64,000 bases of DNA from Escherichia coli (GTDB taxonomy: Bacteria > Pseudomonadota > Gammaproteobacteria > Enterobacterales > Enterobacteriaceae). The position numbers and the translations under genes are program-made. Within the stretch, counting starts at the first letter, position 1. Each line of letters starts with the position of its first letter. The stretch lies in NCBI RefSeq assembly GCF_050920415.1, contig NZ_CP169309.1; one strand, 5' to 3'. Positions 12,772-13,680 of this stretch are shown one piece after another. The notes beneath the pieces were generated by a model that worked only from the letters and a program-made list of their open reading frames with translations, ran no database searches and had not been told where the DNA came from.

Positions 12772-13680
12772 TTAGTTAATCAGCTTATCAAGCTCAGCAA
12801 GAGGTAAATTTGCCATCTCTGCAACGTCTTCCCGAGACATTCCTTTACTCAGAAGACGCAGGGCGAATTCTTGCCTTTCCTCCTGTCTTCCCAGCTGAAT
12901 CCCCTTCTCAATCCCCTTCTCAATTCCCTTCTCTTCAAACCACTGCGCCAGCGTCATCATAGACTCCCCTCCCGTTTCCCTGTCTCTCACCACACCATAA
13001 AACAAATCCGCTTGTTCAGTATGACCACGTTGCAGCATATAGTTTTGCATGGCAACTAACTGACTTCCGCTAGTGTACCCTTCGTCAATCAGCGTGACCA
13101 GTTTCTCCAGCAATAACATTAAGTCGCGCTGGCGAATATGTTTTTGCAGCAGTTCGAGAATCGCAATCCGCCGATGTTGCATGATTTCGTCATCCGGTGT
13201 GATAGTGATATCCACCAGCGGGAAAGGACTGTTATAGACGCGTCGCGCCAGCTCCGGCGAGTAAAACATATCAAACCAGCACATTGAGAGCGGATAAGGT
13301 GTGGCCTCGCCCTGATAAAACAGAATCGGCACCACCAGCGGCAGCTTATCGTGATCTGCCTCCAGATGCCGGTGCATGGCAGCAATAGAATAACGCATCA
13401 TGCGAAACGCCATTTTTTTATCCGGCTTGCTTTGGTGTTCAATCACAACATGTAGATAGCCCGTATTACCCTGCATTTGCACGGAATAGAGCACGTCAGT
13501 GCTGTGCCCTTTCAGGCTTTCTTCAATAAAACTCCCCGACTCAAGATGCAGCGTGTCGAGATCACACAGTTCGCGTAGCTCCGCTGGCAAATGGATATCC
13601 AGAAAGTCGCGAGCCGTTTCCGCGTGCATTAAAAATTGTTTAAACACCGCATCATGCGGTGTGGTACTCGGTGCATCCAT
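12772..13680 (-). CDS. yadD: Rpn-family (YhgA-like, PD-(D/E)xK) recombination-promoting nuclease / putative transposase
   Basis: ORF 302 aa MDAPSTTPHDAVFKQFLMHAE...; recognised YadD (RpnC)-like sequence; contains in-frame (EKGI)x3 repeat. Confidence 0.85.
   Translation of the reverse strand: MDAPSTTPHDAVFKQFLMHAETARDFLDIHLPAELRELCDLDTLHLESGSFIEESLKGHSTDVLYSVQMQGNTGYLHVVIEHQSKPDKKMAFRMMRYSIAAMHRHLEADHDKLPLVVPILFYQGEATPYPLSMCWFDMFYSPELARRVYNSPFPLVDITITPDDEIMQHRRIAILELLQKHIRQRDLMLLLEKLVTLIDEGYTSGSQLVAMQNYMLQRGHTEQADLFYGVVRDRETGGESMMTLAQWFEEKGIEKGIEKGIQLGRQEERQEFALRLLSKGMSREDVAEMANLPLAELDKLIN

Follow-up and report, generated by a model that had tools for sequence, protein, structure and literature searches.

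An in-frame four-amino-acid repeat of variable length in rpnC, a predicted gene-within-a-gene toxin-antitoxin locus of Escherichia coli

The rpnC locus and its repeat array

The window considered here (the whole 64-kb stretch of E. coli DNA that was analyzed) encodes rpnC, also known as yadD, in the gene order panC, rpnC, panD, yadE (Table 1). The order panC-rpnC-panD is identical in all 24 chromosomal RefSeq loci that we retrieved, where the gene is annotated as rpnC or as Rpn family. No second rpn paralog was found in the 64-kb window. The product, RpnC-L, matched the Pfam family Transposase_31/YhgA-like (PF04754) over residues 7-207 (E = 4.9e-87) and the NCBIfam model TIGR01784 for Rpn family recombination-promoting nucleases (290.7 bits, cutoff 52.1). 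A PD-(D/E)XK catalytic motif (D ... E-x-Q/K) with putative nuclease residues was also identified. Based on domain, family, and synteny, we identify this open reading frame as the RpnC ortholog of the Rpn (YhgA-like) family of recombination-promoting nucleases.

A megablast search with the window gene detected rpnC in 5,424 of 5,426 complete E. coli genomes. Identity to the window gene reaches at least 99% in just two of these genomes and is 90-95% in most records, so rpnC is highly polymorphic and the window allele is a rare one. The rpnC of strain MFDS1022581 is 100% identical to it. The stretch yadI-yadE-panD-rpnC (10272..13680) is unusually divergent from K-12, with 191 mismatches in 3.2 kb (~6%).

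Between rpnC and panC lies an ERIC/IRU-type intergenic repeat (12552..12680, with its core at 12597..12640 on the minus strand), and a second copy occurs at 33986..34029 on the plus strand. The core corresponds to the two classical ERIC primer sequences set back to back. Compared with Rfam V_AS5 the element is subthreshold (49.8 bits, cutoff 96). It is present in O157:H7 and absent in K-12, in which the gap between rpnC and panC is 73 nt rather than 220 nt. In many strains the interval between rpnC and panC also includes rpnC-Ss (MEIKTRRETRQTLAQWFEEKGFQKG...), a second tail gene that stands alone, begins ~70 nt past rpnC on its downstream side, and has its own variable four-residue units (FQKG, YQEA; seen at loci L005, L007, L008, L010, L016, L020, and L024). 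This gene was described by Zhong et al. (PMC10400941); a tblastn search of the window did not find it.

Table 1. Coordinates of rpnC and of the features identified within it
Feature	Position	Strand	Basis or remark
rpnC (yadD), RpnC-L, 302 aa, YhgA-like PD-(D/E)XK nuclease (predicted)	12772..13680	-	domain, family, and synteny
PD-(D/E)XK-type motif D62...E81-H-Q83, N-terminal nuclease domain (putative)	13432..13497	-	motif match only
rpnC-S, internal in-frame ORF, 62 aa, MMTLAQWFE...KLIN, predicted intragenic antitoxin	12772..12960	-	
Shine-Dalgarno-like GGGAGGGGAG	12964..12973	-	3 nt upstream of ATG ATG (12960..12955)
EKGI array, three tandem 12-bp units GAGAAGGGRATT	12898..12933	-	RpnC-L residues 250-261; RpnC-S residues 10-21
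Degenerate 12-bp units in the register of the EKGI array: CAGCTGGGAAGA QLGR, CAGGAGGAAAGG QEER, CAAGAATTCGCC QEFA	12862..12897	-	

Close to the 3' end of rpnC, the plus strand reads aatccccttctc aatccccttctc aattcccttctc, three tandem units of 12 bp to which Tandem Repeats Finder assigned a period of 12, 3.0 copies, 95% matches, and a score of 65. The units of the coding strand are GAGAAGGGAATT GAGAAGGGGATT GAGAAGGGGATT, which translate to EKGI EKGI EKGI with one synonymous GGA/GGG difference. Both the plus-strand letters and Tandem Repeats Finder bear out a preliminary description of three tandem 12-bp repeats here, and its placing of them in frame in yadD near the C-terminus agrees with their position at residues 250-261 of 302. 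Across the 64 kb this is the single period-12 array of three copies with at most one mismatch, and 200 shuffles produced none; it is not a chance feature. The coding strand of the repeat is 83% purine, single-stranded repeat DNA showed no unusual structure (z = 0.71), and no Rfam families were found to overlap it. A 62-aa antisense ORF with a TTG start (12871..13059, plus strand), encoding NPLL NPLL NSLL, has no support as a gene and was treated as the mirror of the coding repeat.

Tandem Repeats Finder reported only three arrays in the whole window, including that of rpnC. A 630-aa ORF (34238..36130, minus strand) contains a 303-bp tandem repeat (35295..36109; 2.7 copies with 80% match), and its three similar N-terminal modules look like the three lipoyl domains of pyruvate dehydrogenase E2 (AceF), an ordinary and known domain triplication. 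A 21-bp repeat (31578..31628, 2.4 copies) encodes an Asp/His-rich run, DDDDHDHHHDDDDYHHH, in a 584-aa ORF (30665..32419, plus strand), toward the C-terminus of which 'SASPEQRQ' segments recur.

An in-frame ATG ATG precedes the array by nine codons, in the layout GGGAGGGGAG-TCT-ATGATG (12973..12955, minus strand). We consider GGGAGGGGAG a strong Shine-Dalgarno candidate at a suitable spacing, and the element is kept in 11 of 11 alleles inspected, either as GGGAGGGGAG or as GGGAGGGAAG. From this predicted start a small C-terminal protein, RpnC-S, would be made, with the sequence MMTLAQWFE(EKGI)3QLGRQEERQEF...KLIN, in which the array occupies codons 10-21. A consensus scan found no sigma-70-like promoter site inside rpnC, and a relaxed scan returned one weak candidate (TGGTCA-17-TACACT, 8/12 matches) 111 nt upstream. 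For a short rpnS transcript from an internal promoter there is dRNA-seq evidence in the literature.

We aligned 27 Rpn tails, and the resulting profile matched the crystal structure of RpnA-S (7TH0_A, E = 3.9e-5), and sequence searches of the PDB with full-length RpnC or with RpnC-S alone gave no Rpn match. AlphaFold2 predicted helices at residues 4-38, 43-49, and 54-61 of the window RpnC-S (pLDDT 74.8), placing the repeat within helix 1, with modest confidence in the repeat itself (pLDDT ~60-69). Foldseek comparison of this model with the PDB returned nothing significant, just weak helix-turn-helix-like matches. The profile match and the model indicate that the C-terminal domain of RpnC is homologous to RpnA-S, a three-helix bundle with a long first helix. 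A nine-unit variant was modeled to see whether the helix simply lengthens with the array; the model was of low confidence, with helix 1 broken and pLDDT <50. PADLOC v2 gave only a weak match to the tail ('putative invertase', E = 1.5e-5).

Rpn tails of Salmonella, Klebsiella, Citrobacter, Serratia, and others keep both the internal Met and, at the corresponding place, a zone with a four-residue period and a length that varies (QGMQ KGVQ EGMQ ... is one example), in agreement with Zhong et al. (PMC10400941). At the point of the internal start, an M-T/S-L/I/V motif is present in all the tails displayed from Salmonella, Klebsiella, Serratia, and Citrobacter.

Unit number across E. coli

We read the arrays of 24 chromosomal E. 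coli loci and found 0, 1, 2, 3, 4, 6, 7, or 9 EKGI-type units (Table 2); eight units occur in one database protein. The frame is intact in 24 of 24 complete rpnC alleles examined. Copy number therefore varies among strains without breaking the frame, as the preliminary description had thought possible, and a count of units across strains, the kind of check it had proposed, gave numbers that are not identical everywhere.

Table 2. EKGI-type units in rpnC of individual E. coli strains
Units	Strains
0	strains whose array uses a second 12-bp family, CAGGARGTAAGA = (R)QEV
1	HS13-1
2	K-12, O157:H7
3	window, MFDS1022581, N96, 2013C-4282, Z0117EC0005, L6_E562, 504239, NRZ14408, O158:H23
4	EC42405, VCSW7
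6	CFT073, Nissle 1917
7	ATCC 25922, clone D i14
9 (diverged units)	MS20657

The (R)QEV family replaces the EKGI units in approximately one quarter of the sampled E. coli (loci L005, L007-L010, and L023), in arrays of one to eight units (strains 4/4, PKF8, 648, E50, ETEC4071, and GF43). In the window, 12862..12897, the part that other strains have expanded into this second family, retains only degenerate units, and Z0117EC0005 has one extra unit (QEAR) in this second zone.

The lengths of rpnC in the E. coli collection change in steps of 12: 873, 885, 897, 909, 921, 933, 945, 957, and 981 bp. In a systematic sample of 59 megablast records, ~36 have two-unit lengths (894 or 897 bp), four the one-unit length (885 bp), three the six-unit length (945 bp), and ~15 the lengths of RQEV-type alleles. 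A full census of units by synthetic queries was dropped: when shifted by 12 bp the zone resembles itself, and the flanks differ from allele to allele, so that bands of coverage and identity did not cleanly resolve n and n±1 units. Three-unit alleles were listed with a 92-nt query comprising a 28-nt flank, three units, and a 28-nt flank. The three-unit state proved rare, in ~31 of 5,426 complete genomes (0.6%), and its records form four classes (4, 9, 9, and 9) with the unit compositions C,B,B; C,x,B; A,A,B; and A,y,B. The differences in composition among these classes indicate independent origins.

Gain and loss of units

Closely related alleles show how single units differ. CFT073 and Nissle 1917 (six units) and ATCC 25922 and clone D i14 (seven units), all of ST73, have 0 mismatches over ~5.3 kb and are distinguished by one GAGAAGGGAATT unit adjoining identical copies. 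The enterotoxigenic (ETEC) strains L6_E562 and 504239 (three units) carry the first unit of K-12 (two units) in duplicate and otherwise show 1 mismatch to K-12 over 3.09 kb, and 2013C-4282 (three units) differs from EC42405 (four units) by a duplicated neighbor unit. HS13-1 and MS20657, with one and nine units, have 1 mismatch in rpnC. In the single-unit differences the extra unit is the same as its neighbor (A,B->A,A,B; C,B,B->C,C,B,B; CCC->CCCC). Because the extra unit copies an adjacent one, the pattern fits the prediction for replication slippage or unequal sister exchange, and we infer that units are gained and lost by slippage or by unequal exchange between adjacent near-identical units. 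The slipped-strand hotspot suggested in the preliminary description is consistent with these neighbor copies, with slippage as a probable mechanism.

Independent assemblies of the same strain agree in the length of rpnC: Nissle 1917 and its derivatives all have 945 bp, CFT073 has 945 bp in three assemblies, and ATCC 25922 has 957 bp in three. This agreement places the variation on an evolutionary timescale rather than that of fast phase variation and implies a mutation rate that is not extreme; the array cannot be called hypermutable over laboratory timescales. A phase-variable contingency locus was considered in two forms and is not supported. On/off switching is ruled out by the 12-bp unit and the 24 of 24 alleles in frame, and high-frequency change within a clone is not seen among the independent assemblies and laboratory derivatives of Nissle 1917, CFT073, and ATCC 25922, each of which keeps a single length.

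Units could instead change mainly by recombination or gene conversion, among rpnC alleles or with the downstream rpnC-Ss, rather than by replication slippage. Mosaic alleles, in which EKGI-type and RQEV-type arrays are joined to different C-terminal ends, would fit such a route, as would the hybrid start EEKG-RQEE of E50, the second tail gene downstream of rpnC in many strains, and the high polymorphism of the region (~6% between the window and K-12 in 3.2 kb upstream). However, the single-unit differences occur on otherwise identical DNA of 3-5 kb, the copying of an immediate neighbor is what slippage at the site itself or unequal sister exchange characteristically leaves, and the window has no downstream rpnC-Ss to serve as donor. 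We regard recombination as an unlikely main route, although it is the most credible of the alternatives.

Appreciably less probable is that the RpnC-L nuclease stimulates both gain and loss of units in its own dodecamer array. Zhong et al., who wrote that the mechanism of repeat change 'warrants further study', raised such self-diversification as a speculation, and literature that they cite reports that Rpn proteins promote RecA-independent recombination (PMC10400941). Nothing in the present data requires it, and the unit changes resemble ordinary duplication of a neighbor.

Toxin-antitoxin pairing

Rpn genes have been described as pairs of a toxin and an intragenic antitoxin (Zhong et al., PNAS 2023, PMC10400941). 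In that study, an internal initiation site was identified in all five rpn genes of E. coli K-12, rpnC included, from which small Rpn-S proteins are made, and the toxic full-length nuclease Rpn-L is bound and inhibited by Rpn-S. A repeat four residues long (KGIE in RpnC), starting 8-20 residues past the initiating Met, differs in number among strains. Addition of one KGIE to K-12 RpnC-S abolished neutralization of RpnC-L, which was regained when both proteins carried the extra unit (Fig. 4D of PMC10400941); the number of units sets the specificity of RpnC-S/RpnC-L pairing. The rpnC repeat is real, functional, and already known, having been described and experimentally tested for rpnC itself (PMC10400941), and the window adds no new principle.

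The window shares with this system the gene, the KGIE/EKGI repeat, and the variation between strains. Its repeat is at the published site in helix 1, ~10 residues after the internal Met, and starts at residue 10 of RpnC-S, inside the published range. The engineered '+REPEAT' state of that study corresponds to the three-unit array of the window and to the natural ETEC allele (K-12 plus one unit). Nothing essential sets the window apart; its background is rare, its array is followed by QLGRQEER in place of QQGRQEVS, and rpnC-Ss is absent downstream. The preliminary description was right about the repeat, its frame, and its variation; it missed the function and the presence of the array in both RpnC-S and RpnC-L.

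We think it very probable that the array represents the hypervariable repeat, with units of four amino acids, that belongs to the toxin/antitoxin gene-within-a-gene of RpnC. On this model, rpnC would encode the full-length nuclease RpnC-L, and the internal Shine-Dalgarno sequence with ATG ATG at 12960 would direct synthesis of the 62-aa RpnC-S, which would bind and inhibit RpnC-L. The (EKGI)n segment would lie within helix 1 of the C-terminal domain, a long helix that is the predicted oligomerization interface. With one DNA encoding both proteins, gain or loss of a 12-bp unit would alter toxin and antitoxin together, and a pair read from shared DNA would coevolve automatically. The cognate pair would stay matched and would turn orthogonal to Rpn-S proteins with another number of units. 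Contributing to this reading from the present analysis are the repeat, its frame, the internal ORF with its Shine-Dalgarno sequence, the homology of the tail to RpnA-S, and the variation from 0 to 9 units among E. coli, with single-unit differences on DNA that is identical apart from them. Expression of RpnC-S and the loss of neutralization upon mismatch come from the literature on K-12 RpnC (PMC10400941) and, by analogy, may hold for the window allele.

Accepted on these terms, rpnC is a compact toxin-antitoxin pair in which helix length would set specificity and each step of change would amount to four residues. Our analysis adds quantitative context, namely the rarity of the three-unit state (~0.6% of complete E. 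coli genomes, on several backgrounds), the near-isogenic strains that are one unit apart, and the natural allele that equals the engineered '+REPEAT' construct.

Diversification of the array may be driven by a defense arms race. Anti-phage activity was demonstrated for the plasmid Rpn RpnP2, not for chromosomal RpnC (PMC10400941). A search of 50,697 phage genomes found no RpnC-S-like protein, and so a phage decoy as driver is without support. A commentary offers insulation between paralogous rpn copies in trans as an alternative driver (PMC10400984); the 64-kb window has one rpn gene only. Apparent plasmid matches were rejected as true plasmid Rpn-S genes, being either records of chromosomal size or a copy, full of errors, of this chromosomal region. 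The latter, in the 'plasmid' pC27A-2 (CP044307.1, 142555..146665), is a frameshift-ridden copy of the panD-rpnC region and is probably a low-quality or misassigned assembly rather than a plasmid-borne Rpn-S gene.

Going further, the array could work as a 'specificity dial' under active diversification, more than a passive site of slippage: RpnC-L, or a trigger from phage, would promote gain and loss of units, and each number would be an orthogonal toxin-antitoxin class that is repeatedly reinvented. The three-unit state on at least four backgrounds and the (R)QEV family in about one quarter of E. coli might be cited in its favor; we consider this version improbable.

Alternatively, slippage within a linker or tail that is flexible could have made the array polymorphic in a neutral way, its unit number having no functional consequence. 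The coexistence of many unit numbers in E. coli and the moderate AlphaFold2 confidence in the repeat would be compatible with neutrality. Against it, neutralization is lost upon addition of one unit to a single partner and is kept when toxin and antitoxin share the addition (Fig. 4D of PMC10400941), the periodic zone is kept at the corresponding place in the Rpn tails of several genera, and the frame is unbroken in all 24 complete alleles examined. Neutrality is already largely refuted for K-12 RpnC, and we consider it very improbable here. The chance that the copy-number differences are artefacts of assembly or sequencing is negligible: tandem repeats are sometimes misassembled and the pC27A-2 record is full of errors, but the arrays (12-108 bp) are far below read length, lengths change in multiples of 12 only, and the concordance of independent assemblies within Nissle 1917, CFT073, and ATCC 25922 excludes it.

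The RpnC repeat has a counterpart in HsdS of the type I restriction systems EcoR124I and EcoR124II, cited as an analog by Zhong et al. (PMC10400941). The TAEL repeats of HsdS likewise occupy a spacer that is helical, with units of 12 bp that keep the frame, and a change from two to three units alters specificity while function is kept. The proteins are unrelated, however, and the HsdS repeat sets the length of the DNA spacer recognized (N6 versus N7), whereas that of RpnC sets toxin-antitoxin pairing. With simple-sequence contingency loci the RpnC array shares a short intragenic tandem repeat, a copy number that is polymorphic among strains, and probably slippage. It differs from them in that its unit is a multiple of three, giving no on/off frameshift, and in that the array is short (three units) and does not vary between assemblies of one strain; the outcome of a change is specificity, not expression.
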